A stretch of DNA of 64,000 nt from the NCBI GenBank assembly GCA_021787535.1, contig JAJYLR010000001.1, positions 211,648-275,647 of the forward strand, read 5' to 3'. This document shows positions 3,842-61,316 of this stretch, one piece after another. The notes beneath the pieces are model-generated. The model worked only from the letters and a program-made list of their open reading frames with translations, did not search any database and was not told the origin of the DNA. Both the position numbers and the translations under genes were made by a program. Position 1 is the first letter of the stretch, and each line of letters starts with the position of its first letter. This stretch comes from a bacterium. Its GTDB lineage: Bacteria > Patescibacteriota > CPR2 > UBA1875 > JAJYID01.

Positions 3842-3869
3842 TTGTCATCCTGAACTTGATTCAGGATCC
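3842..3869. repeat. Hairpin repeat, minus orientation (TGTCATCC-ctgaacttgattcagg-ATCC)
   Basis: Inverted-repeat motif of the GAATGACA family. Forms an inverted pair with the element at 3882-3912. Confidence 0.6.
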
Positions 3870-3881
3870 AGATTTATTTAT

Positions 3882-3912
3882 ATAGATTCCGGATCAAGTC
3901 CGGAATGACAAA
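3882..3912. repeat. Hairpin repeat, plus orientation (ATAGATTCC-ggatcaagtccgg-AATGACAAA)
   Basis: Matches copies at 31671, 32367, 43202 and 50788. Lies immediately upstream of the argS start. Confidence 0.65.
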
Positions 3913-3917
3913 AAATT

Positions 3918-5594
3918 ATGAACGATGAACTGAAAAAATCTATTTATGAAGCGGTAAAAGCTCAGCAAAAAAGTTGCGGGTGCAGTTTTGATATTCCTGA
4001 AATCGAAATCGAAAATCCGAAAGATCCGAAGTTTGGGGATTTATCGACTAATATTGCGATGAAGATAGGCAAGATGCAGGGAAAGAATCCGATGGCGATT
4101 GCCGAGAATTTGGTGAAAGGACTGGATTCCCGCCTTCGCGGGAATGACAAAAAAGGGGGCCAGAATGATAAATTGGGCGGAATGATCAAGAAAGTGGAAG
4201 CGGTGAAGCCGGGATTTATCAATTTTTATTTCAGCCTTGATTATTATCAGGGAAAAGTTAGGGAAATTTTATCAGCTGGTCGAAAATATGCCGATTTAAG
4301 TATTGGAAAAGGGCAGAAGGTGCAGGTTGAGTTTATTTCGGCAAATCCAACCGGACCGCTGACGCTGGCAAACGGGCGAGGAGGTTTTAGCGGTGATGTC
4401 CTTGCTAATGTTTTCAAAAAAGCCGGGTTTAAAACTGAACGGGAATATTATGTCAATGACGGCGGAAATCAGGTAAAGGTTCTCGGGGATTCTATTTTAG
4501 CCGCAGCAAAACTAGTTCCTAACAAAGAAGATAATTACCGTGGCGATTACATTGAGAAATGGGCAAAAGAACATTATGGTGAATGTGCAGAGCTAAAAGA
4601 TAATTCATTTGAACTTGGCAAGATTGCCGCAAAAGATATTTTAGAAACCTTAATTCAGCCGGTTATTGGGAAAATGGGAATCGAGTTTGACAGCTGGTTT
4701 AGTGAAAAAGAGATGACCGGACGGGGTGAGGTAGATGAGACAATTCAGTTTTTAAAAGATAATCATCTGACAAAGTCTGAAGACGATGCTCTTTGGATGA
4801 AGACCACTGAGTTTGGTGACGACAAAAATCGGGTTTTGGTAAAAAAAGACTGTGAAAAGACATATTTTGCAAATGATATTGCCTATCACTACGACAAATT
4901 CGCGAAAAGGAAATTCGACAAAGTGATTGACCTCTGGGGTGCCGACCATCACGGTTATGTCGGTCGGATGCAGGCGGCTGTTGAAGCGATGGGCTTTGCC
5001 GGAAAGCTGGATATAGTGATTTTCCAAATGGTTCGACTCATAAAGGATGGTAAGGAATACAAGATGTCCAAGCGAAAGGGTACTTATGTGACCATAGATG
5101 AATTATTTGATCTCATTGGCATCAAAGATGCCGCCGATGTCGTCCGTTTCTTCTTCATTTCTAAGGGATTTGACACGCATATGGACTTTGATCTTGATCT
5201 TGCCAAAGACACTTCCGAGAAAAACCCGGTTTATTATGTGAAATATGCATCAGCTAGAGTGAATGGTATTTTGCGCAATGCAAAAGAAGATTTCTCTGCA
5301 GTAAATCTGAAATTAATTAAAGAACCGGCGGAACTTGACCTAATTAAAAAACTGTCAGAGTTGCCGGAGCTGGTAGAGCAAGTCGCCACCGATAAAAAAT
5401 ATCCGGTGCACAAGTTTACCTATTACATTACGGAAGTTGCGGAGAAATTCCACAGGTTCTATCACGACTGCAGGGTGATTTCGGACGACGCGGAACTAAC
5501 CAAAGCCAGATTGGCGCTTGTTGCCGCCACAAAGAATGTCCTGGAAATAACGGGAGAAGACATTCTCGGTATTGACATGCCGGAGAGGATGTAA
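3918..5594 (+). CDS. argS: Arginine--tRNA ligase
   Basis: 558 aa. HHGYVGRMQAAVEAMG and KMSKRKGTYVTIDEL (KMSKS-type) motifs. GFINFYF N-terminal motif. Confidence 0.9.
   Translation: MNDELKKSIYEAVKAQQKSCGCSFDIPEIEIENPKDPKFGDLSTNIAMKIGKMQGKNPMAIAENLVKGLDSRLRGNDKKGGQNDKLGGMIKKVEAVKPGFINFYFSLDYYQGKVREILSAGRKYADLSIGKGQKVQVEFISANPTGPLTLANGRGGFSGDVLANVFKKAGFKTEREYYVNDGGNQVKVLGDSILAAAKLVPNKEDNYRGDYIEKWAKEHYGECAELKDNSFELGKIAAKDILETLIQPVIGKMGIEFDSWFSEKEMTGRGEVDETIQFLKDNHLTKSEDDALWMKTTEFGDDKNRVLVKKDCEKTYFANDIAYHYDKFAKRKFDKVIDLWGADHHGYVGRMQAAVEAMGFAGKLDIVIFQMVRLIKDGKEYKMSKRKGTYVTIDELFDLIGIKDAADVVRFFFISKGFDTHMDFDLDLAKDTSEKNPVYYVKYASARVNGILRNAKEDFSAVNLKLIKEPAELDLIKKLSELPELVEQVATDKKYPVHKFTYYITEVAEKFHRFYHDCRVISDDAELTKARLALVAATKNVLEITGEDILGIDMPERM
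4124..4155. repeat. Hairpin repeat inserted in frame within argS (GGATTCC-cgccttcgcgg-GAATGACAAA)
   Basis: Same motif as intergenic copies. Encodes DSRLRGNDKKG in the ArgS frame. Degenerate gccagaatgat and ggcggaatgat follow at about 4158-4190. Confidence 0.6.
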
Positions 5595-10008: not shown

Positions 10009-13000
10009 ATGGAAGATTTGCTGAAGGGTTTGAATAAAGAGCAGAAGGAAGCCGTTACTCACGACAAGGGACCTCTCTTAATCGTGGCCGGAGCCGGGAC
10101 AGGGAAAACGACTGTTATCACTCGGCGGATCGCCTGGTTAATCGCGCAAAAGCTGGCGTTACCTTCTGAGATTCTAGCCCTCACTTTTACCGATAAAGCA
10201 GCCGGTGAGATGGAGGAGCGGGTCGACGAACTTGTGCCTTACGGATTCGTCGACACCTGGATATCCACTTTTCACGCTTTCGGCGATCGTATTTTGCGCG
10301 ATCATGCTCTTGATCTCGGACTGACGACCGATTTTCGGGTTTTGTCCAAGCCGGAGCAAGTGATTTTCATGCAAGACAATTTGGAAGCCTTTGATCTAAA
10401 ATATTTCTCGCCGCTTGGCAATCCGACCAAGCACATCGATGCGCTTCTCGGCCACTTCTCAAAGCTGAAAGATGAAATAATTTCACCGGCCGAGTATTTA
10501 GGGTTTGCCGATAAGAAATTAAAGTCGGCTCAGGATTCTGACGAAAAACTCGAAGCGGAGAAGACGTTAGAAATTGCCAGAGCTTACGAAAGGTATCAGG
10601 AGCTGATGGCGGAAGCCGGCAATCTCGACTTCGGCGACCAGATAAATATACTCATTCATTTATTGAAAACCCAGCCGGCGATCTTGAAAAAATACCAGAA
10701 GCAGTGCAAATACATCTTGGTCGATGAATTTCAGGACACAAACTACGCCCAGAACGAACTACTGAAGTTATTAGCCGGGGGAAAGGATTCTGGTCAAGCC
10801 AAAATGACCCACGCACCGCTTCAGGGTGCGGGGCAGGCACAGGGTGGCCACGGAAATATCACAGTGGTTGGTGATGATGACCAGTCGATTTACCGTTTCC
10901 GCGGCGCCGCCATTTCAAACATTTTGCAGTTCCCGAAAGATTACCCGAGATGCAAGCAAATAGTTCTAACGGAAAACTACCGTTCGACACAGGCGATTTT
11001 GGACAGCGCCTATAAATTAATAAAACACAACAATCCTGATCGTCTGGAAGTGAAGAATAATATTGTGAAGAAGCTGACTTCCAGGTTTGACGCCGACTCG
11101 GTTGAACCGATCCATTTGCATTCAGACACCCTGACTGCTGAGACGGACCGGGTGGCGAAAATGATCAAAGAATATTTCGACGAAGGCAGATATTCGTTCA
11201 AGGACTTCGCTATTCTCTCGCGGTCGCGCCGAAACGCGGAAGATTTCATTCACGCTCTAAACCATTACGGCATTCCTTATAAATTCTCAGGTTCTTCCGG
11301 CTTATATTCTAGAGCCGAAATCCGCTTGTTAATAAATTTCGCCAAGGTTTTAATTTCATCCGGTGACAATCTGGCCTTCTATCATTTAATTACATCAGAT
11401 GTTTATGGAATGAATGTGTCGGAGGCGGTGAAACTAAATGAAATCTCACAGAAAAACAAACGAAGTCTGAATGATGTGGCGAACGCAATTAACTTTTCAA
11501 AATCAAAATCTGACTGGATTCCCGCCTCCGCGGGAATGACAGACGAGGCAAGGGCAATTTTAGATAGGGCATTGAAGGATTTGAAAAATTTCCGCGAAGA
11601 ATCAAAGAAGCTGACCGCCGGACAGGTGATTTACATGTTTTTGAAAGAAACGGGGTATTTGTCAAAACTAGTGACGGAGTCCGAGAAGAGCGCGGAGGCG
11701 CAAGTGGCCATCCAGAATATCGCCAAGTTTTTTGAAAGAATCGGTGATTTTGAAAAAGTCTCGGAGGATAAAAGTATTGTGAACTTCGTCCGTCACTTGA
11801 AAGCTCTGATGGATGCCGGTGATGATCCGGCAATGGCCGAGGTCGATCCGGATCTTGAGGCGGTCAGTGTGCTTACGGTTCACTCGGCTAAAGGATTAGA
11901 GTTTCCGGTAGTGTTTGTGGTCTCGCTTGTCTCGGACAGCTTCCCGACTCGCAAACGCGCCGAACAGTTGCCGATTCCGGAGGAATTAATTAAAGAGTCT
12001 TTACCGGAGGGCGACTGGCACCTGCAAGAAGAGCGGCGGCTCTTCTACGTCGGCATGACCAGAGCCAAAGAAATTCTGTACCTAACGAGCGCCGAGGATT
12101 ATGGCGGAAAGAGGGCGCGCAAGGTTTCCCAGTTCGTTCTGGAGGCGATTGATAAGCCGGCTTCGGCGAAAGAAAAGGTGAAGCTTGATAAAGTTGAGGT
12201 GATCAAGAGGTTCAAAAAGCGCGATGAGATTGTAATTCCCAAGAAATTCTACGATGGCAAGGGACTCTTAACCCTAAATCCGCATCAGATAGATGACTAT
12301 CTGTCATGTCCGAAGAAGTTTGAATATATCCATATTCTGCGTGTGCCGATCATGACCCACCACTCGGTGGTCTATGGTTCGGCAATACATAAGGCGATTG
12401 AAGCGTATTTTGTAGCGAAAAAAGCCGGCAAAAAGGTCAGTTTGGATGATTTAATAGAAGTCTTTAGCGCAAATTGGCGAAGCGAGGGATTTATTACCCG
12501 CGAACACGAGGACAAAAGGTTTAATCAGGGGAAGAAATCGCTTGGTGAATTTTTCGCCAGAGAAGAAGGCAAGAAGCCGCCGGAGGAAGTGGAAGCGAAG
12601 TTTGAAATACCGCTAAAGGATCTCAATGTGAAAATTCGCGGCCGATTTGATGCAGTATATGTCAAATGTAAAACGGAAAATGTTAAATGTGAACAAACCG
12701 AAATCCGCGACTTTAAAACTTCAGAGGTTGAGAATCAAGAGCAAGCAGACAAAAAAGCCAAGACGAATAGGCAATTATCAGTTTACGCGCTGGCCAAGCA
12801 AACCGAAACAGGTATCATCCCGGAAGTGTCGCTTTATTTCGTCGATTCGGGGTTGGTTGGGAAGGTTCAAAAGAAAGAAAAAGATCTAGACAAGGTTCGC
12901 GGGGAAATTGAGAAAGTAGTCGAAGGGATTAAAAAGGAAAACTTCAAAGCTTCTCCCGGATTTGGTGAGTGTTCGCGCTGCGCCTACCGAGAGATTTGTC

Positions 13001-13020
13001 CGTTTACACTATCGAAATGA
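10009..13020 (+). CDS. UvrD/PcrA-family ATP-dependent DNA helicase fused to a C-terminal PD-(D/E)XK nuclease with a Cys cluster (AddA/AddB-Cas4-like)
   Basis: Walker A GAGTGKTTV, DEFQDTNYAQ, VVGDDDQSIYRFRGA. C-terminal RFDAVY...EIRDFKTS...QLSVYALA nuclease motifs plus CPKKF...CSRCAYREICP Fe-S-type cysteines. Confidence 0.85.
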   Translation: MEDLLKGLNKEQKEAVTHDKGPLLIVAGAGTGKTTVITRRIAWLIAQKLALPSEILALTFTDKAAGEMEERVDELVPYGFVDTWISTFHAFGDRILRDHALDLGLTTDFRVLSKPEQVIFMQDNLEAFDLKYFSPLGNPTKHIDALLGHFSKLKDEIISPAEYLGFADKKLKSAQDSDEKLEAEKTLEIARAYERYQELMAEAGNLDFGDQINILIHLLKTQPAILKKYQKQCKYILVDEFQDTNYAQNELLKLLAGGKDSGQAKMTHAPLQGAGQAQGGHGNITVVGDDDQSIYRFRGAAISNILQFPKDYPRCKQIVLTENYRSTQAILDSAYKLIKHNNPDRLEVKNNIVKKLTSRFDADSVEPIHLHSDTLTAETDRVAKMIKEYFDEGRYSFKDFAILSRSRRNAEDFIHALNHYGIPYKFSGSSGLYSRAEIRLLINFAKVLISSGDNLAFYHLITSDVYGMNVSEAVKLNEISQKNKRSLNDVANAINFSKSKSDWIPASAGMTDEARAILDRALKDLKNFREESKKLTAGQVIYMFLKETGYLSKLVTESEKSAEAQVAIQNIAKFFERIGDFEKVSEDKSIVNFVRHLKALMDAGDDPAMAEVDPDLEAVSVLTVHSAKGLEFPVVFVVSLVSDSFPTRKRAEQLPIPEELIKESLPEGDWHLQEERRLFYVGMTRAKEILYLTSAEDYGGKRARKVSQFVLEAIDKPASAKEKVKLDKVEVIKRFKKRDEIVIPKKFYDGKGLLTLNPHQIDDYLSCPKKFEYIHILRVPIMTHHSVVYGSAIHKAIEAYFVAKKAGKKVSLDDLIEVFSANWRSEGFITREHEDKRFNQGKKSLGEFFAREEGKKPPEEVEAKFEIPLKDLNVKIRGRFDAVYVKCKTENVKCEQTEIRDFKTSEVENQEQADKKAKTNRQLSVYALAKQTETGIIPEVSLYFVDSGLVGKVQKKEKDLDKVRGEIEKVVEGIKKENFKASPGFGECSRCAYREICPFTLSK
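10785..10833. repeat. Composite repeat in frame in the helicase gene (ggattctggtcaagccaaaatgac + ccacgcaccg..gtgcgggg hairpin)
   Basis: First half matches the 23271/30893/61144 family. Second half matches 32411-32437. Encodes DSGQAKMTHAPLQGAGQ just before the VVGDDDQ motif. Confidence 0.55.
11517..11546. repeat. Hairpin repeat in frame in the helicase gene (GGATTCC-cgcctccgcgg-GAATGACAGA)
   Basis: Near-identical to copies at 4124 and 61178. Encodes IPASAGMTD. Confidence 0.6.
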
Positions 13021-21173: not shown

Positions 21174-21965
21174 ATGGATAAATATATTAAAGATTTAGAT
21201 AAAATCCTTTCCGAAGAGTTTCTTTCATTAAAAAAAGAGATTAAGAGCCAAAAGCTCGGGGTTCTTTTTTCCGGAGGAGTAGACAGTTCCCTTATTGCCA
21301 GGTTAGGCGAAGATACCGGACTAAACCCCATTCTTTACAGTTTCGGAACCGAAAAATCCAAAGACAGGCAGTTTGTTTTTGACTTTGCGAGCGATATGAA
21401 AATGCCGCTTGTTTTTGAAGAGGTTAAAACCGGTGAGATTGAAAAAAATATTCCATTGATTAGAGAAGAACTGGCTAAAATCGGCGAGGACCCGAATCCT
21501 ATGCAAGTCGCTCTTGCAGTCGGAGTTTATCTGGTTGGGAAAAAGGCAAAAGCAGACAATGTTAAATTTATGCTGTGCGGGCAGGGGTCTGATGAGCTTT
21601 TTGCCGGATACAAGAAATATGAGGGGTTAAAAGACGATGATTTGCAAAAATCTTTGGAGCGCGACATTGAATCTGTAATGAGATCGGATATCGCCCGCGA
21701 TGCCCATATGCTATCGCTTTCCGGCATTAAACTTTTCGCGCCGTATACCAGCCAAGAATTTATCGACTATGCCCTGAAAATCCCGCTTGAATATAAAGTT
21801 TCGGGCGATACAAAAAAATTTATAATTCGCAAAGTCGCGGAAAAACGCGGACTCCCCGACTATATTTGCGAACGTCCTAAAAATGCCATGCAGTATTCAT
21901 CCGGAATCCAGAAAGTTGTCTCAAAAGTTTGTAAAGCGGAAAGGCAAAATGGACAAACTGCTTGA
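21174..21965 (+). CDS. Stand-alone asparagine synthetase C-terminal-domain-like PP-loop ATP pyrophosphatase (no glutaminase domain)
   Basis: PP-loop LFSGGVDSS and MLCGQGSDELFAGYKKY resemble the AsnB synthetase domain (SGGLDSS / GEGADELFGGY). 263 aa. Confidence 0.65.
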   Translation: MDKYIKDLDKILSEEFLSLKKEIKSQKLGVLFSGGVDSSLIARLGEDTGLNPILYSFGTEKSKDRQFVFDFASDMKMPLVFEEVKTGEIEKNIPLIREELAKIGEDPNPMQVALAVGVYLVGKKAKADNVKFMLCGQGSDELFAGYKKYEGLKDDDLQKSLERDIESVMRSDIARDAHMLSLSGIKLFAPYTSQEFIDYALKIPLEYKVSGDTKKFIIRKVAEKRGLPDYICERPKNAMQYSSGIQKVVSKVCKAERQNGQTA

Positions 21966-23658
21966 AAAAGTAATTCAAGAATCCATTGGCCGAAAAATAG
22001 TTTCAGATGAGGATTTTCTAACTTTAATTAAAGAAAATTTCAAAGGCAAGTCTGAGGCGAAGTTCCCCTCAAATATTGAAATAAGGAAGAAGTACCGGTG
22101 CATGGTTAATAGAGGGATAATACCGCCAAGTCCGGCGCTGGAAAAAATATTGGTTACCAAAAAGATGCGTTCTCTCTCCGGTGTGGCTGTTATCACGGTC
22201 TTGACCAAACCTTGGCCGTGTCCGGGCAAATGCCTGTATTGCCCGGTTCAGGAAAACGTGCCAAAGAGCTATCTTGCAAGCGAACCGGCAGTGATGAGAG
22301 CGATTTTGTGCGAGTACGATCCCTACAAACAGGTGAAAGCTCGGCTAGATTCACTGGCACTAGAAGGCCATCCGACTGACAAGATTGAACTCATTGTTAT
22401 CGGCGGGACATTTTCAGTGTTACCAAGAGATTATCAGGAAGAATACATAAAGTTATGCCTCGATGCATTGAACGGTACAAAAAGCAAAGATCTAAACAAG
22501 GCAAAAAGGGCAAATGAAACAGCCGAGCATCGTCTAGTCGGGCTGACACTCGAAACTCGGCCTGACTATATTACGAAAAAAGAAGTTGAGCGGATGAGAT
22601 ATCTTGGTACGACAAGAGTCGAGCTGGGTGTGCAGTCTGTTTTTGATGAAGTTCTAAAATTTAACAAACGTGGTGCGACTAATGAAGATACAATTTGTGC
22701 GACGCAACTTTTGAAGGATGCGGGACTAAAAATCTGCTACCATATGATGCCCGGACTGCCGGATTCGGATTTAAAAAAAGACCTGGAAATGTTTAAAGTT
22801 ATTTTTACTGATCCGAGATTTCAGCCGGATTACGTAAAGATTTATCCCTGTATGGTAACGAAGGGTTCAGAACTTTATGAGTTTTGGAAATCCGGAAAGT
22901 ATAGGCCTTACACCGACAAGGAATTAGAAAGTTTAATCTGCGAAATTAAAAAGACCGTGCCATATCAAGTGCGGATCATGCGGCTTATTCGCGATATCCC
23001 TTCCACAGATATTGAGGCAGGTTCAAAAGTGACAAATTTACGGCAAAACGTGCAAAAGAAATTACAATCAGAAGGGGTGAGGTGTAAATGTATCCGCTGT
23101 CGGGAAGCGGGATTATTAAAGAAAGATGAAAAAGTAAAAAGTAAAAATTTCTCCTTTGTCATCCCGAGCGACTTCGCGGAGCGACGAGTCGAGGGATCCC
23201 TTCCAGAAAATGATCAATTCCTAATCTCTAATGGCCAATCAATCTCCAATGATCAAAAATCAAGAAGAATGGATTCTGGGCAAGCCAGAATGACATTGTT
23301 GCGTGATGAGTATGAGGCGAGTGGCGGAAAGGAATTTTTTTTGAGTTACGAGACGGGGGATAGAAGTGTCCTGTCCGCTCTTTTACGCTTAAGATTACCC
23401 GGCGAAACGTATTTGCCGGAGTTAAAAGATGCGGCTCTAATCCGCGAAGTCCATACCTATGGCCAGCAGATCGAAATCGGCAAAAGGGGCGATACTCAGC
23501 ACAAAGGGTTGGGCAAAAAATTAATTACGAAAGCTGAGCAGTTGGCGTGCAAAAACGGTTACAAAAAAGCTGCCGTCATCTCCGGGGTCGGTGTCCGTGA
23601 TTATTACCGAAAACTTGGTTATGAACTTGATGGTGAGTATATGATCAAATTGTTATAA
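21946..23658 (+). CDS. elp3: Elp3-like tRNA uridine(34) carboxymethyl-modifying radical SAM / GNAT acetyltransferase
   Basis: Radical-SAM Cys cluster KPWPCPGKCLYCP. C-terminal GNAT region IREVHTYGQQIEIGKRGDTQHKGLGKKLITKAEQLA is typical of Elp3. The likely ATG at 21946 overlaps the upstream gene by 20 nt. The ORF-track start is 21883. Confidence 0.8.
   Translation, partial: KMDKLLEKVIQESIGRKIVSDEDFLTLIKENFKGKSEAKFPSNIEIRKKYRCMVNRGIIPPSPALEKILVTKKMRSLSGVAVITVLTKPWPCPGKCLYCPVQENVPKSYLASEPAVMRAILCEYDPYKQVKARLDSLALEGHPTDKIELIVIGGTFSVLPRDYQEEYIKLCLDALNGTKSKDLNKAKRANETAEHRLVGLTLETRPDYITKKEVERMRYLGTTRVELGVQSVFDEVLKFNKRGATNEDTICATQLLKDAGLKICYHMMPGLPDSDLKKDLEMFKVIFTDPRFQPDYVKIYPCMVTKGSELYEFWKSGKYRPYTDKELESLICEIKKTVPYQVRIMRLIRDIPSTDIEAGSKVTNLRQNVQKKLQSEGVRCKCIRCREAGLLKKDEKVKSKNFSFVIPSDFAERRVEGSLPENDQFLISNGQSISNDQKSRRMDSGQARMTLLRDEYEASGGKEFFLSYETGDRSVLSALLRLRLPGETYLPELKDAALIREVHTYGQQIEIGKRGDTQHKGLGKKLITKAEQLACKNGYKKAAVISGVGVRDYYRKLGYELDGEYMIKLL
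23155..23200. repeat. Hairpin repeat in frame within elp3, minus orientation (TGTCATCC-cgagcgacttcgcggagcgacgagtcgag-GGATCC)
   Basis: Flanking TGTCATCC/GGATCC as in the family at 3842 and 27068. Encodes FVIPSDFAERRVEGS in the linker between the radical-SAM and GNAT domains. Confidence 0.5.
23271..23298. repeat. Hairpin repeat in frame within elp3 (GGATTCTGG-gcaag-CCAGAATGACA)
   Basis: Matches copies at 30893, 61144 (reverse) and 10785. Encodes MDSGQARMTL. Confidence 0.55.
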
Positions 23659-27067: not shown

Positions 27068-27124
27068 TGTCATCCTGAACGTAGTGAAGGATCTAGAGAT
27101 TCTTCGTTTCACTCAGAATGACGG
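27068..27124. repeat. Inverted pair of hairpin repeats (TGTCATCCTGAAC...GGATC and GATTC...CAGAATGACG)
   Basis: Same architecture as the 3842/3882 and 50745/50788 pairs. Intergenic, just upstream of the MBL-fold gene. Confidence 0.55.
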
Positions 27125-30834: not shown

Positions 30835-30892
30835 CTGCTTAAGCAACCGAGCCATAAGGTGAAGTTGAATTTGAGGCCGTGCTTAATTATTG

Positions 30893-30920
30893 ATTCTGGC
30901 CAAGCCAGAATGACGAGGAT
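30893..30920. repeat. Hairpin repeat (GATTCTGG-ccaag-CCAGAATGACG)
   Basis: Matches 23271 and 61144. A second palindrome ttcggatatccga follows at about 30930-30945. Confidence 0.55.
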
Positions 30921-38602: not shown

Positions 38603-38633
38603 TTTGTCATTCCCGCGCAGGCGGGAATCCAGC
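38603..38633. repeat. Hairpin repeat, minus orientation (TGTCATTCC-cgcgcaggcgg-GAATCCAG)
   Basis: Reverse complement of the GGATTCC...GAATGACA family. Confidence 0.65.
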
Positions 38634-38871: not shown

Positions 38872-41382
38872 ATGTTTATCATTATAACAGGAGGGATTTT
38901 ACTCATTGTTGCAGCCGCGGCGGGCTTTATTTATTTCTATAAACGTACTAACGCATACAAGAAACAAATTGAAAGATCTCTGAAAATCGTTCCCTTAATG
39001 GTTCGGGTTCCGCGCGAAATGGGAAGTAAAGAAAAAGCCACCCAAAACCGAGATGATCGCGATGTCGGCCGGGAAATAATCTCATTTATGGAGACTTTCT
39101 ATGCTAATCTCTCTGTGATTTACAAAAGAGGTTTTAAAGATATCCATCATAATCTTCTTTATGGCCAGAGACACATTGCGCTTGAGATTATTGCTAAGGA
39201 CAAAGATATCTTTTTTTACATAGGCGTGCCTATTACCCTCCTGGATATGGTCGAAAAGATGCTCTCTTCGCAATATCCGGATTCAGTGATAGAGGAAGCG
39301 GAGGAGCATAATATTTTTTCAAAAGATTGGCGGAAAATGGGTGTCTGCGGCGGACAAATGAAGCTTTACAGATCTTTTATTTATCCCCTAAAAACTTATA
39401 AAACCATTGAAGCCGAGCCGCTGGAGTCTATTACTAACACCTTGGGCAAGCTTGAAATGGGAGAAGGGGCCGCTATTCAGATATTAATTCGTCCTGTACA
39501 TCCAAGAAAGATGTATAAAGGAAGAAACTTTGTTAAAAAATCTCAAAATCAAAAAAAAGGCGGCGGTTGGGCTGCGTCTTTTGCAAACACTTTGACTAAT
39601 AAAGATCAGAGTCCCCTAAATCAAGAGCCGGTCAGATTAACAGCCATGGAAGAAGAAGTAAATAAAGCGATTGAGGAAAAGGCGGGCAAACCGTCATTTG
39701 AGACAATTATTCGTTTTGTAGTTTCTTCGGGAACGCCGCATCGCAGTGAGATGATATTAAATGAGCTAAACGGTGCTTTTGCCCAGTTTAACGACCAAAA
39801 TCTAAACAGTTTTCGTTTTCGAAGAGAGCAAAACGTAAATCAATTGGTCACTGACTATATATTCAGATTTTTCGAGCATAAGATTTTTTCTGTCAAAAGG
39901 ATGTTTTTTGGCGGTTTCATTGGCCATAAAAACATTTTAAATACCGAAGAACTAGCCGGTATTTTTCATCTTCCGAACTATCTTATTTCTTCTCCCGGAA
40001 TCAAATGGCTGCCGGCAAGAAGAGTAGAAACTCCCTTAAATCTACCTAAAGAGGGCACCATTATTGCCAAAACTCATTATAGAGGCCAGGAAGAAACAGT
40101 GAGATTAGCTGAAAATGATAAGCGTCGCCACGTCTATATTCTAGGCCAGACCGGCACCGGCAAGACAACCACCATGTTAAACATGATTATCGATGACATT
40201 CATCACGGAAAAGGAGTGGCGTATATTGATCCCCATGGCGACGCTATCGATGATATTCTTGCTAAGATTCCCAAAGAAAGAGCTGAGGATGTAGTGATCT
40301 TTGACGCCGGTGATGTGGAGCGGCCGATGGGATTAAATATCTTCGAAGCGAAAACTATCGAACAGAAAGATCTGGTGATTCAGGAAGCGCTGCAAATCCT
40401 CTACCGGCTCTATGATCCGAACCATACCGGCCAGATCTTCGGGCCGCGTTTTGACCATTGGCTTAGGAATGCCGCCTTAACTTTGATGGCGGATCCGGAG
40501 GGCGGAACATTTATTGAAGTGCCGAAGGTATTTTCGGATGATAAATTCCTGGCGCATAAGCTGAAATATGTAGAAGATCCGGTAGTCAGAAGCTTCTGGG
40601 TTGATGAGATAGGCAAAACCAGCGACTACCATAAATCTGAGATGATGGGATACTTTATTGGCAAGTTTGGAGCATTCATGACCAACACCACCATGCGCAA
40701 CATTATCGGCCAGCCAAAATCTTCTCTAAATTTGCGCGAAATCATGGATACGAATAAGATTCTGCTTGTTAACTTATCTAAAGGGCGTATTGGCGAACTG
40801 AATATGCGTCTGCTTGGTATGGTTTTTGTTGTTAAACTGCAGATGGCTGCCATGTCGAGGGTGGAAATGCCGGAAGAAGAACGCAAAGACTTCTATCTTT
40901 ATGTCGATGAATTCCAGAATTTTCTCACGGAATCTTTTGCTCAAATTTTATCCGAGGCCAGAAAGTACAGATTATCCCTCATTGTGGCCAATCAGTTTAT
41001 CGGCCAGCTGACTGACGAGATCAAAAATGCAGTCTTTGGCAACGTAGGAACAATTATTAGTTTCCGCGTCGGTCCGGAAGATGCCGAGTTTATGTCCAAG
41101 CAGTTTGAACCGGTATTTACCCAGCAAGATTTAATTAATATCGAAAACTATAATGCGGCCATTCGCTTGATCATAAATGGCATACCATCCCGTCCGTTTA
41201 ATATCATCGGCTTCCCGCAAATTGGTGTGGCTGATCAGTCGGTGGGAAAAGCCATCCGAGAACTTGCTCGGCTTAAATACGGGCGTCCGCGGGAAATTGT
41301 AAACAGAGAAGTTCTGGCCCGCATGTCCATCGGATCCATGTCGACAGTTACAGAAACCATGCCGAGAGACACAGGGATCTAG
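38872..41382 (+). CDS. FtsK/HerA/VirD4-superfamily P-loop ATPase resembling a type IV coupling protein (TraD/TraG/VirD4-like) with an N-terminal TM anchor
   Basis: Walker A GQTGTGKTT followed by YIDPHGD. Walker B LYVDEFQNF. C-terminal ANQFIGQL...GNVGTIISFRV. 836 aa. Confidence 0.6.
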   Translation: MFIIITGGILLIVAAAAGFIYFYKRTNAYKKQIERSLKIVPLMVRVPREMGSKEKATQNRDDRDVGREIISFMETFYANLSVIYKRGFKDIHHNLLYGQRHIALEIIAKDKDIFFYIGVPITLLDMVEKMLSSQYPDSVIEEAEEHNIFSKDWRKMGVCGGQMKLYRSFIYPLKTYKTIEAEPLESITNTLGKLEMGEGAAIQILIRPVHPRKMYKGRNFVKKSQNQKKGGGWAASFANTLTNKDQSPLNQEPVRLTAMEEEVNKAIEEKAGKPSFETIIRFVVSSGTPHRSEMILNELNGAFAQFNDQNLNSFRFRREQNVNQLVTDYIFRFFEHKIFSVKRMFFGGFIGHKNILNTEELAGIFHLPNYLISSPGIKWLPARRVETPLNLPKEGTIIAKTHYRGQEETVRLAENDKRRHVYILGQTGTGKTTTMLNMIIDDIHHGKGVAYIDPHGDAIDDILAKIPKERAEDVVIFDAGDVERPMGLNIFEAKTIEQKDLVIQEALQILYRLYDPNHTGQIFGPRFDHWLRNAALTLMADPEGGTFIEVPKVFSDDKFLAHKLKYVEDPVVRSFWVDEIGKTSDYHKSEMMGYFIGKFGAFMTNTTMRNIIGQPKSSLNLREIMDTNKILLVNLSKGRIGELNMRLLGMVFVVKLQMAAMSRVEMPEEERKDFYLYVDEFQNFLTESFAQILSEARKYRLSLIVANQFIGQLTDEIKNAVFGNVGTIISFRVGPEDAEFMSKQFEPVFTQQDLINIENYNAAIRLIINGIPSRPFNIIGFPQIGVADQSVGKAIRELARLKYGRPREIVNREVLARMSIGSMSTVTETMPRDTGI

Positions 41383-50744: not shown

Positions 50745-50770
50745 GGTCACTCTGAACCTGATTCAGAGTC
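50745..50770. repeat. Hairpin repeat variant, minus orientation (GGTCACTCTGAAC-ctgat-TCAGAGTC)
   Basis: Variant of the TGTCATCCTGAAC...TCAGGATC motif. Confidence 0.5.
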
Positions 50771-50787
50771 TATACAGATAGAATTTG

Positions 50788-50818
50788 GATGCCGGATCAA
50801 GTCCGGAATGACATAAAG
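50788..50818. repeat. Hairpin repeat (GATGCC-ggatcaagtccgg-AATGACATAA)
   Basis: Matches 3882 and 43202. Forms an inverted pair with 50745-50770. Confidence 0.6.
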
Positions 50819-51569: not shown

Positions 51570-51750
51570 TTACAAGCATTTGAATACAAAAAAGGAGGGG
51601 TAACAAATCTGGCAACAGATAAGTGTTGTTTTATGCGTTGAATTCAAAGCAAAAGAACTTTGAAAACTGAAAAGTAGAGAAAACAAAGTCACGTCAATTT
51701 GAACGAGTATCACAACTCAAATTATCAGGAAAGCTTGTCTTTCCACTTTT

Positions 51751-53282
<1,532 letters not shown>

Positions 53283-53535: not shown

Positions 53536-53613
53536 TGCGCGTGTAGCTCAGCTGGTTAGAGCGCCACACTGATAATGTGGAGGTCCCTGGTTCAAGTCCA
53601 GGCACGCGCACCA
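53536..53613 (+). tRNA. tRNA-Ile (anticodon GAT)
   Basis: Acceptor gcgcgtg/cacgcgc, anticodon stem ccaca/tgtgg with loop ctGATaa, T arm cctgg-ttcaagt-ccagg, CCA encoded. Confidence 0.85.
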
Positions 53614-53912: not shown

Positions 53913-53989
53913 GGGCCCGTAGCTCAGTTGGCTAGAGCGCCTCGTTTGCACCGAGGAGGTCGCAGGTTCGATTCCTGTCGGGTCCACCA
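53913..53989 (+). tRNA. tRNA-Ala (anticodon TGC)
   Basis: Acceptor gggcccg/cgggtcc with the G3:U70 alanine identity pair. Anticodon stem cctcg/cgagg with loop ttTGCac. CCA encoded. Confidence 0.85.
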
Positions 53990-54044: not shown

Positions 54045-55859
54045 ATGAATTTACGAAACGTAGCAATTATAGCTCACGTTGACCATGGCAAGACTACGCT
54101 TGTCGATGGTCTTTTAAAGCAGTCGAAAACCTTTCGCGAAAACGAGGCGGCTTTTTCTCAGGAGTTGATAATGGATTCAAACGATCAGGAGCGCGAACGC
54201 GGGATTACAATCCTCGCCAAAAACACAGCAGTCAAGTACGGCGACACAAAGATTAACATTATCGACACGCCGGGACACGCTGACTTTGGCGGAGAAGTTG
54301 AGAGAACTTTAAACATGGCAGACGGCGCTATCCTTGTCATTGACGCGCACGAAGGGCCGATGCCGCAAACCAAATTTGTTTTGAAAAAAGCGCTTGAGAT
54401 TGGTTTAAAGCCAATCGTGGTTATCAATAAAATAGACAAACAGAATGCTCAAATCGACAAGGTTATCAGTAAAACCCATGATCTTTTCCTGGATCTTGCC
54501 ACTGATGTCGATCAGCTTGAGTTTCCCATATATTATGCCATCGCCAGAGAAGGAAAAGCTTGGGAAAAGGCGCCTGGAAACATGGGCGAGAAAGCCGATC
54601 TGACTTGCATATTTGAGGCGATAGTAAATCACGTGCCGGCGCCGAAAGTTGAGGAAGGAACATTCCAAATACTCGTCACATCGCTTGAAAGCGACAGCTT
54701 CCAAGGTAAAAATGCTATCGGCAGGATAAAAAGAGGAAGCATTTCGCCCGGTAAAACCATTACATTAATCAAGAAAGACGGTACTACCGAGCAGGCCAGA
54801 GTCGATAAAGTTTATGTGGCCCAGGGCCTCAAAAAAATTGAAGTGTCCGAGGCGCCGGCCGGAGAAATCGTGGCTCTAACCGGGATCAAGAATGCCGGCA
54901 TCGGCGACACGCTGGCAGATAGTGACAATCCGGAAGCATTGCCAACTATTGAAATAGAAGAGCCGACGCTCAAAATGTCAGTTGCCGCCAACACTTCTCC
55001 TTTTGCCGGCAAGGAAGGCCAGTTTGTAACCGGGCGTCAAATTTTGGAGAGGATCAAAAAGGAACTAGAAACAAACGTTTCCTTAAAAATGGAAATGGGA
55101 AATGCCGGCGACTACATATTATCCGGACGCGGCGAACTGCATTTGTCGGTATTTATCGAGACGCTTAGGCGCGAAGGATATGAGCTTGAAGTAGGCAAAC
55201 CCCAGGTGATTACAAAAGAAATAGACGGTGTGAAATGCGAGCCAATGGAAGAACTGACTATTGACGTGGTAACCGAGCACGTCGGTGCGGTGACGGCAGA
55301 GATTGGCAGGCGAAAAGGCGTTCTTCTAAGCCAAGAGGAAAACTCGGACGGCACAACAAGATTGGTATTTGGAATATCTACTCGGGGAATTTTAGGTTTA
55401 AGGAATCAATTACTTACACTTTCCCGTGGAACAGCCATAATGAACTCAATTTTCACCAAGTTTCAGCCGGCCGGAGCCGCTATACCCAAGTTGCGAAACG
55501 GGGTACTTATTGCCAGCGAGTCGGGCAAAGCTGTGGCATATGGGCTAAACAATGCCCAAGGGAGAGGCATAGTTTTTATCAAACCTCAAACTCAGGTGTA
55601 TGAAGGTATGATAGTCGGGCTAAATTCCCGCGAGGGCGACTTGGAAATTAATGTGACCAAAGAAAAGAAGCTGACAAATGTGCGAGCATCAAGTTCTGAT
55701 GAAGCGCTGATCTTGACTCCGCCGACGATATTTACCCTTGAACAATCACTGGATTTCCTGGAGGATGATGAACTCCTTGAAGTAACTCCAAAGAACTTGA
55801 GGCTCCGTAAGAAAATCCTCAACAAAACCGCCAGAAAAAGATCGGGTATGAAAGTTTAG
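54045..55859 (+). CDS. typA: Translational GTPase TypA/BipA
   Basis: [33 protein letters not shown]-domain motifs. 604 aa with EF-G-like domain architecture. Confidence 0.9.
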
Positions 55860-55917: not shown

Positions 55918-56400
55918 CTACAAAGCCTTTTTTAATTCATCAACCGATTTTCTAACTATATCTAATTGGTTTTGAGTTTTCATTTCTCTTCTCGCATAAT
56001 CCATAATCTCTTTTACTTCTTGCACCTTTCCTTTCCATCGTTTTAGCATCCAGGGGTGCCAAGGGAAAAGCCAGATATGGAAGTGAGAGGTCGAGGTATT
56101 CTCCTCCTGAATAACAGTGACATAAGATATTTTCAGGGCAGAGCGCATCACTTTTCTTAAATCGTGCAAAAATTTTGTTAGCTCTGTCAGTTCAGTGTCG
56201 TTCATTTCATCAATTGAAAGGACGTGCCTCTTTGATGCAATAATTACGAATCCTTCGATCGGATATTCAAGGTCTTGTTCGGCGACAAAGTTGTCTGTTT
56301 CTGCAATCCTTTCGATGGGCAGCTGAATGGTTCCGTTTTGGATCGAGCATGCGATGCAATCAATATTATGTGTTTTTCCTTTTATATCTACGATTTCCAT
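55918..56400 (-). CDS. HIT (histidine triad) family hydrolase
   Basis: Histidine triad HFHIWLFP near the C-terminus. 160 aa. Confidence 0.65.
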   Translation of the reverse strand: MEIVDIKGKTHNIDCIACSIQNGTIQLPIERIAETDNFVAEQDLEYPIEGFVIIASKRHVLSIDEMNDTELTELTKFLHDLRKVMRSALKISYVTVIQEENTSTSHFHIWLFPWHPWMLKRWKGKVQEVKEIMDYARREMKTQNQLDIVRKSVDELKKAL

Positions 56401-61093: not shown

Positions 61094-61120
61094 TTGTCAT
61101 TCTGAATTTAATTCCCCTGA
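61094..61120. repeat. Degenerate hairpin repeat, minus orientation (TGTCATTCTGAAT...)
   Basis: Variant of the TGTCATCCTGAAC motif. Confidence 0.4.
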
Positions 61121-61143
61121 ATTACGAAATACATTCTTTCTGC

Positions 61144-61167
61144 GTCATTCTGGCTTGGCCAGAATCA
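61144..61167. repeat. Hairpin repeat, minus orientation (CGTCATTCTGG-cttgg-CCAGAATC)
   Basis: Reverse complement of the 30893 copy. Confidence 0.55.
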
Positions 61168-61177
61168 AAGATTGGCT

Positions 61178-61203
61178 GGATTCCCGCCTTCGCGGGAATG
61201 ACA
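61178..61203. repeat. Hairpin repeat (GGATTCC-cgccttcgcgg-GAATGACAAA)
   Basis: Identical core to the in-frame copy at 4124. Confidence 0.65.
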
Positions 61204-61316
61204 AATAAAGAAAGGGCTTTTGAATTCACAGATAAAGGCGTTGACACAGTATCTGATTACTGACTAAAATATCAATAGAGAAATAAAAATGCGGGGGTAA
61301 GATAAAAACTCAATCA

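Follow-up and report, generated by a model that had tools for sequence, protein, structure and literature searches.

The stretch of DNA analysed here, referred to below as the window, covers 64,000 nt of contig JAJYLR010000001.1 (assembly GCA_021787535.1) from a Patescibacteria-like bacterium. Its open reading frame (ORF) 21946-23658, on the plus strand, encodes a complete Elp3, in which a Zn-Cys central linker joins a radical-SAM domain to a C-terminal GNAT/KAT domain, and it is within this linker that a composite palindromic element is found in frame (table 1). The assignment to Elp3 comes from Pfam (Radical_SAM, 7e-18; Radical_SAM_C, 9e-21; GNAT matches weak and under the curated cut-offs) and from a search of the PDB, which retrieved the Elp3 of Methanocaldococcus infernus (MinElp3, 6iad, E=8e-137) and that of Dehalococcoides mccartyi (DmcElp3, 5l7j, E=1e-127). 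An in-frame ATG further upstream, at 21883, overlaps the preceding Asn-synthase-like gene. We collected 120 Elp3 homologs, and an alignment of 111 sequences served for the census of linkers, the invariant columns and the AlphaFold2 model. In this alignment, the Fe-S cysteine triad C92/C96/C99 (CxxxxCxxC-type) is invariant and Q518/H519/G523 (QHxGxG) are conserved; since all invariant columns are kept in the window protein, the enzyme is probably active. The three Zn-binding cysteines of the central linker are described as strictly conserved, and the linker itself as partially disordered in crystals (PMC6367351); in the window they lie in a CKCIRC motif about 20 codons 5' of the insertion.

The window protein aligns to MinElp3 in two blocks (query 67-390 versus chain 14-343, and query 449-568 versus chain 357-481, the latter being the KAT domain). 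Between them, 58 residues are unaligned in the query versus approximately 13 in the archaeal protein, MinElp3 (solved structures: DmcElp3 5L7J and MinElp3 6IA6/6IAD; PMC6367351), i.e. some 45 extra residues relative to the archaeal and Dehalococcoides enzymes, the excess that an earlier note on this DNA had anticipated. The closest of the 120 homologs, P0002 (locus L001), is 45 amino acids shorter and lacks exactly this segment, although it is 83% identical in amino acids outside the insert and placed as sister with 100% bootstrap. Both repeat units and the spacer between them are absent from its gene, where the linker reads GLNMSNVKGKMSNVKLFKEEY. Orthologs without the element have linkers of 16-21 residues (motif-to-motif measure), and no homologous linker was found in Methanocaldococcus, Dehalococcoides or most Patescibacteria-like orthologs, so that the condition named in the earlier note as refuting its reading did not arise. 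Overall, 46 of the approximately 58 residues without counterpart in solved Elp3 structures belong to the element, so that the earlier description of a linker built largely of repeats is upheld. At the empty site (L001 7168-7205), the 11-nt sequence ATGTCAAATGT, which includes the TGTCA end motif, occurs twice as a direct repeat (MSNVKGKMSNV); judging from the sequence, it could be a footprint or simple-sequence repetition.

The inserted segment is 138 nt long and has (T)GTCAT...ATGAC(A) as its outer ends. It is composed of two units of a family of approximately 25-nt hairpins of the form (T)GTCAT[TC]C-stem-loop-stem-G[GA]ATC, set in opposite orientations and separated by an AT-rich spacer. The earlier note had placed two repeat copies in the inter-domain linker, and both are present within 3 nt of where it put them, with the peptides it gave: the first copy is TGTCATCCCGAGCGACTTCGCGGAGCGACGAGTCGAGGGATCC at 23157-23199 (previously 23155-23200), translated as (F)VIPSDFAERRVEGS, and the second is GGATTCTGGGCAAGCCAGAATGACA at 23271-23295 (previously 23271-23298), translated as (M)DSGQARMT(L). 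The two units belong to different types, with different stems. Unit 2 has near-identical copies elsewhere in the window (10786-10808, 30892-30914 and 61144-61166), and its DNA fold is more stable than expected (z = -2.8). Unit 1 has no second copy in the window; the sister genome holds a 92% identical one between genes (L001:11304-11341), which forms the left arm of an inverted pair, as unit 1 does in Elp3. The spacer carries the motif AATGATCAA at 23209-23217 and 23248-23256, resembling degenerate unit ends (GAATGACAA), and the spacer of the L004 copy contains (CCAATTT)x3.7 (Tandem Repeats Finder, TRF). The fragments of this motif reported earlier between the copies do exist; the 9-mer is, however, not significantly enriched in the window (4 observed versus 1.4 expected; at least 4 in 8/100 shuffles). 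Its two other window copies, at 4181 and 11160, mean that all four lie in the three unit-bearing genes. The composite is open in one of its six frames, and the minus-oriented unit, as read from its sequence, has a TGA stop in one of three frames.

Table 1. Position of the features in and around the Elp3 gene and of the other repeat units discussed (window coordinates).
Feature	Position	Strand	Remarks
Elp3 gene	21946..23658	+	570 aa from ATG 21946
CKCIRC, three central-linker cysteines C380, C382, C385	23083..23100	+	invariant in both homolog alignments
Residues 395-445, native linker remnant and most of insert	23128..23280	+	sole AlphaFold2 segment with pLDDT <50
Short tandem repeat (AAAAAGT)x2.7	23129..23147	+	native linker part (KVKSK); TRF
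Composite palindromic element	23158..23295	+	46 codons (VIPSDF...DSGQARMT, residues 405-450)
Unit 1, long imperfect GTCATYC...GRATC hairpin (GTCATCCCGAGCGAC..GTCGAGGGATC)	23158..23199	+	family termini
Internal spacer, AT-rich	23200..23271	+	degenerate CCAAT/CAATTTC-type repeats
Unit 2, 7-bp-stem hairpin GTCATTCTGGCTTGCCCAGAATC	23272..23294	-	near-identical window copies
Genic unit, ArgRS (ORF 3918-5594)	4125-4148		in frame, DSRLRGND
Genic unit, AddA-like UvrD/PD-(D/E)XK helicase-nuclease (ORF 10009-13020)	10786-10808		in frame, DSGQAKMT
Genic unit, same AddA-like ORF	11517-11540		in frame, IPASAGMT
Inverted pair, TGTCA outermost	3843-3910
Inverted pair, TGTCA outermost	27068-27122		between SprT-like ORF and metallo-beta-lactamase-fold gene
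Inverted pair, TGTCA outermost	50745-50813
Inverted pair, TGTCA outermost	61095-61205

The same composite was retrieved at the same Elp3 site in other genomes. It is present in P0003 (L002 and L003), where the L002 copy is 80% identical over 139 nt without gaps, and in P0004 (L004), at 83% identity and with a nested GC-rich palindrome of 21 nt. A pattern scan at the DNA level, made independently on 185,579 species genomes, added a further Elp3 copy (L007) and, in another genome, a composite read in frame in a YchF gene (L006; host gene identified by Pfam YchF-GTPase_C, 6.9e-39), colinear with the window copy through the spacer. Apart from the nested palindrome, the window composite aligns to the L004 and L007 copies throughout. 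At the same site, P0012 (L010) has only the 3' end of the spacer and unit 2, and this insert looks like a deletion derivative or decay product. The GC-rich palindromes form a second small family (CCTGCC...GGCAGG, 21 nt or 7 codons), found nested in unit 1 of the L004 composite (2628-2644) and twice in L007 (1317 and 4704); in the KAT loop of L004 and L009, one such palindrome is read in frame as PACRPGW or PACRPGR, at a position that is apparently the acetyl-CoA blocking loop.

Within the insert, the DNA and not the peptide appears to be constrained. Outside it, identity between the window and L002 at codon positions 1, 2 and 3 is 0.78, 0.87 and 0.47 (L004 being similar), which reads as the usual signature of protein-level selection. 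Inside it, the corresponding values are 0.83, 0.80 and 0.74 against L002, and 0.83, 0.89 and 0.76 against L004: identity is flat and its third-position value lies far above that of the gene. Sliding-window values at the third position peak (0.65-0.83) only within the insert, and fall at once to 0.3-0.55 in the flanks. A recombination tract as the cause of the similarity to L002 and L004 was rejected on this ground, as the raised third-position identity ends at the insert boundaries. By segment, identity among the window, L002 and L004 Elp3 copies is 92-96% for unit 2, 80-84% for unit 1 and 73-76% for the spacer. On these comparisons, the insert would either postdate the divergence of the host genes or be kept by nucleotide-level constraint or homogenisation.

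These data bear on how the insert was assembled. The earlier note had spoken of two insertions, of which the reading of repeat-family DNA in frame stands, whereas the copies and the sequence between them make up one composite unit. Two independent single-unit insertions into a long native linker, with the intervening sequence being original Elp3, would fit the frequency of single units in the window (8 of the 19 curated units described below), the presence of unit 2 alone in P0012/L010 and the different stems of the two units, which do not make a simple inverted duplicate. Yet neither the units nor the spacer are present in the sister ortholog. In another genome, the YchF copy is colinear through the spacer, which is conserved at 73-76% among Elp3 copies when silent sites reach only about 47% identity, and L010 keeps the 3' end of the spacer beside unit 2, as expected of a deletion derivative. 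We thus consider two separate events improbable, and 23158-23295 is best read, from its sequence, as one composite element.

The composite belongs to a hairpin family that is abundant in the window. TGTCATYCYGR occurs 7 times versus 0.16 expected, and strict GTCAYYY...GRRTY hairpins, defined by these ends and 6 or more paired bases, number 15 versus 1.1 in shuffles (maximum 3); the curated set comprises 19 units. Stems of 7-8 bp differ between subtypes (CCCGCG, CCGGAC, CTGAAC, CTGGC) with complementarity kept. Pairing was assessed in 35 different units of 23 nt, taken from the window and the fetched loci on the basis of their ends only, with three candidates without the common CTTG loop left out. 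All 245 of 245 cells were paired, compensatory double changes were seen in 5 of 7 pairs, none of 500 shuffles did as well, and pairing fell to 18-57% in shifted registers. This covariation indicates that the hairpin itself is under selection. The head (T)GTCAT is conserved, with G5, T6, C7 and A8 invariant, and a T-rich 5' flank is the sole flanking feature common to the copies. A role of the hairpins as transcription terminators was rejected, as the T-run precedes the hairpin in either reading direction.

The distribution of the units is biased towards non-genic DNA. With approximately 86% of the window genic and 14% non-genic, 14 of the 19 curated units are intergenic (binomial P ~4e-9, treating units as independent although paired units are not). 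The five genic units are distributed between ArgRS (one), the AddA-like gene (two) and Elp3 (two). Units often form inverted pairs (table 1). Such pairs are also found in L002, L004, L007 and L009, and the same pair types recur across genomes; in some of them, one arm is an exact inverted copy of the other, e.g. GTCATTCCCGCGCAGGCGGGAATC...GATTCCCGCCTGCGCGGGAATGAC in L004 and L009. The intergenic site shared by the window (27068-27122) and the sister genome (L001 11304-11415) holds different inverted pairs, with the same family ends and different interiors. Family members were also detected in IMG/VR contigs classed as viral (L012-L017) of 46-58% G+C, indicating that the family is broader than this lineage; their stems vary by compensatory changes (CCGAC, CCCGC, CCGGC, CTGGC), and one contig (L016, 492-1413) displays 10 alternately oriented units within 1 kb, an array resembling bacterial interspersed mosaic elements (BIMEs). 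No description of the family, of its peptides, or of MITEs (miniature transposable elements with inverted repeats) or palindromic repeats in Patescibacteria/CPR (candidate phyla radiation) was found in the literature searched, which excluded most subscription journals.

The position of the insert appears permissive. AlphaFold2 yields a confident Elp3 fold (mean predicted local distance difference test score, pLDDT, 88.2; predicted template modelling score, pTM, 0.87), and its low-confidence residues 395-445 overlie the insert (residues 405-450), so that the model places the encoded peptide at a structurally permissive surface position. Among the 111 related Elp3 proteins, 22 (approx. 20%) have at least 7 extra residues in the central linker, and unit-type peptides were recognized in about 15 by reading of the listed linkers, for example VIPAKAGIQ...LDSRLRGND, VIPSEVEESRSLRSSRDD, VTLSGTKG...LDSS..GQND and DSGQARMT. 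Insertions in these proteins cluster in four loops, after residues ~180 (radical-SAM domain), ~391-401, ~487-489 (KAT domain) and 514, and many of them carry unit-type peptides; in P0003, the radical-SAM loop contains a 96-residue insertion with several units. The loop after residue 514, judged by its position, appears to be the acetyl-CoA blocking loop. A-rich tandem repeats similar to the one that precedes the window insert were found by TRF at the corresponding place in L004.

Two loci of the same ENA study carry different inserts at the linker site. The Elp3 genes of L004 (1269-3167) and L009 (1331-3208) are 100% identical in nucleotides over the first 990 nt, 42-72% identical from the linker into the first part of the KAT domain, and again 97-100% identical at the end, the tract of reduced identity being approximately 550 nt in all. 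At the same linker site, L009 carries a different inverted pair (VIPAQAGIY...LDSRLRGNDK...). The pattern has one of two causes, allelic exchange by homologous recombination or a strain-chimeric assembly; on either reading, two insert alleles coexist in closely related populations.

The earlier note had also seen the repeats as generating novel protein-coding sequence. The ORF does stay open, and what it encodes looks unconstrained and disordered: with flat codon identity and a pLDDT below 50, the peptide would not be the conserved thing and looks like an unconstrained, disordered passenger with no new functional module. An adaptive, lineage-specific extension of the linker (e.g. a tRNA- or partner-binding arm), to which the resemblance to repeats would be secondary, is accordingly a doubtful explanation, and we give it little credit. 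It would account for the open frame and the length in multiples of three, for the retention of the segment at the same site in several lineages, and it has a parallel in the eukaryotic and archaeal Elp3, which regulate activity via flexible loops (PMC6367351). However, codon-position identity shows neither a second-position excess nor a third-position deficit, the segment is absent from the 83%-identical sister and most orthologs, a near-identical gene has a different insert at the same site, AlphaFold2 confidence is very low and the DNA ends are exact family hairpins.

The hairpins at both flanks and the location exactly between two domains also evoke an intron-, intein- or bypass-like segment that would be eliminated at the mRNA or protein level. 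No Rfam family, introns included, was detected in the insert region, and no intein motif or Pfam match within the insert; moreover, every copy is open and a multiple of three, including the nested 21 nt of L004, which would be needless if the segment were removed, and in Rickettsia, palindromic elements are fused in frame to host ORFs and translated with them (PMC10969869). Removal is therefore highly unlikely. Finally, a repeat-induced misjoin or strain chimera is conceivable for a metagenome-assembled genome, all the more as the L004/L009 mosaic is itself possibly strain-chimeric, but an assembly artefact can hardly explain a segment that is perfectly in frame, between intact conserved flanks, and that recurs at the same codon position in four or more independent assemblies (L002, L003, L004, L007) in addition to the window.

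Most probably, then, the insert is a non-autonomous selfish element, similar to Rickettsia palindromic elements (RPEs) or to REPINs (doublets of repetitive extragenic palindromic sequences, REPs), that is tolerated in the disordered Elp3 linker. The hairpin family would spread by copying of DNA hairpins, through a REP/REPIN-like single-strand DNA mechanism or another MITE-like one, and purifying selection would remove all copies except those that are in frame, stop-free and in permissive loops. The Elp3 copy would survive by combining three conditions, namely a length that is a multiple of three, one stop-free frame and a site that tolerates disordered residues; its 46 encoded residues would, once translated, make a floppy loop without a function of their own. 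In related lineages, the insert would persist or spread through descent and through homologous recombination that moves Elp3 segments, and could also be lost or replaced.

Several results weigh against this interpretation. Only two genomic contexts of the composite were found, Elp3 and one YchF gene, and the shared position in Elp3 could reflect one old insertion under nucleotide constraint and not recent mobility. When the 46-aa insert was searched exhaustively with HMMER against 1.84 billion representatives, one irrelevant repeat protein (P0122) was retrieved, so that the spread of the composite among proteins is not measurable in this way. Unit 1 alone does not fold significantly as DNA (-8.3 kcal/mol, z = -0.68), and the whole composite as RNA folds no better than shuffles (z = +0.4). 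Translation of the insert is read from its open frame. Mobility is itself inferred, since no transposase, REP-associated tyrosine transposase (RAYT) or other Y1/HUH gene was detected with Pfam among 54 ORFs of the 64-kb window (out of a contig of roughly 636 kb), a set that takes in all non-overlapping ORFs of 110 aa or more. Lastly, no target-site duplication was seen at the window, L002 and L004 copies or at other composites, and no consistent target emerged.

Other searches concerned the same questions. Word-index protein searches with the insert peptide and with the VIPAQAGIQ...DSRLRGNDK peptide gave nothing useful, and a metagenome DNA scan for the composite gave one match, a different unit pair with a chance match of the left anchor. 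A DDE-type MITE, considered for the TG...CA ends (TGTCAT...ATGACA), was rejected for want of target-site duplications.

As for the history of the Elp3 copies, a single origin within the clade is somewhat favoured over several insertions, because the native flanking linker is also common to the window and L004 (KVKSKNFSF versus KVKSFSS) and the L010 insert has the look of a decayed copy. With one insertion, P0002 and others would have to have lost the element and recombination to have spread it; with several, a preferred target site would be implied. A wider proposal, which we judge unlikely, is that the GTCATYC...GRATC modules represent an undescribed, Patescibacteria-wide REPIN-like replicator that uses a single-strand DNA enzyme and repeatedly targets the same few surface loops; in Elp3, these would be the central linker, the loops after ~180 and, in the KAT domain, at ~487, and the acetyl-CoA blocking loop. 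Hairpins at domain boundaries may also have been co-opted, for instance as mRNA pause sites that help folding during translation, or as recombination hot spots where alleles are shuffled (L004/L009).

Some further observations concern the Elp3 gene and the rest of the window. Codons 1 to ~45 of Elp3 (window 21946-22080 versus L001 6001-6135) are 91% identical, with a third-position identity of 0.90, versus approximately 0.5 for the rest of the gene, a pattern that suggests a second recombination boundary near the 5' end of Elp3 and the upstream Asn-synthase-like gene. One unit (38606-38629) lies just upstream of an 836-aa ORF (38872-41382) with weak TraG/TrwB/HerA-like NTPase matches, and a 160-aa ORF on the minus strand (55918-56400) has a sub-threshold match to the replication-protein family REP_ORF2-G2P (E=3e-4); these may be left over from mobile or integrated DNA. 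A complete 16S rRNA gene (51747-53281) is followed by two tRNAs (53537-53610 and 53913-53986) and then by a BipA/TypA GTPase gene (54045-55859), with no 23S rRNA after the 16S rRNA gene, so that the rRNA genes are apparently unlinked.

In-frame palindromic selfish DNA in housekeeping genes has classically been tied to Rickettsia, and the same in-frame colonisation of housekeeping genes is now encountered in unrelated bacteria with very small genomes. The phenomenon thus has precedent, and the example described here is clean and well controlled: the sister has an empty site, the composite occurs in a second host gene, and a mosaic is seen at the population level. It accounts for the odd VIP...AGIQ, DSRLRGND and DSGQARMT peptides and for protein length variation in these bacteria, and calls for caution in annotation and structure prediction, such segments being repeat-derived and probably disordered. 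The Elp3 central linker and the three other loops are naturally insertion-tolerant sites, usable for engineering, and the presence or absence of the insert and its mosaic alleles provide strain markers and evidence of homologous recombination in uncultured populations.

Among known systems, the element appears closest to RPEs in behaviour and to REP/REPIN/BIME sequences in anatomy, and on the comparisons made it is assigned to neither family. With bacterial MITEs (intragenic ERIC, pneumococcal BOX, Coxiella QMITE1 and Anabaena MITEs; PMC10969869), it shares a small size, a non-autonomous nature, inverted ends and the ability to sit inside ORFs and extend them (PMC10969869); it differs from them in that no target-site duplication is present and no related autonomous insertion sequence was found. 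The likeness to REPs, REPINs and BIMEs is more detailed and includes short imperfect palindromes with a conserved 5' head, co-varying stems, an extragenic bias, inverted doublets and mosaics of unit types (PMC3116915, PMC3337134). However, the head is GTCAT, at the same position as GTAG/GTGG (GT[AG]G) in REPs; REPs are classically extragenic and untranslated, and the 64-kb window yielded no RAYT or other Y1/HUH gene. In the Elp3 composite, the two arms are of different unit types and form no significant long hairpin, and its replication as a unit would be backed by the one extra context, L006.

RPEs are elements of approximately 150 nt found in frame in many metabolic genes of Rickettsia and compatible with the fold of the host protein, as summarized in PMC10969869 (citing Ogata et al. 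2000 Science 290:347 and 2002 Genome Res 12:808). In both cases, palindromic repeats of approximately 100-150 nt occur in intergenic regions and in frame in unrelated housekeeping genes of a small-genome bacterium, a peptide is added at a permissive place without destroying the enzyme, and no transposase is associated. The element described here is set apart from RPEs by its host, which is Patescibacteria-like and not Rickettsia, by its sequence, in which no resemblance to RPEs was noticed although RPE sequences were not compared, by its modular construction from two hairpins of approximately 25-40 nt with GTCATYC/GRATC ends and interchangeable stems, plus a spacer, and by the fact that the same Elp3 loops have been hit repeatedly in many lineages.

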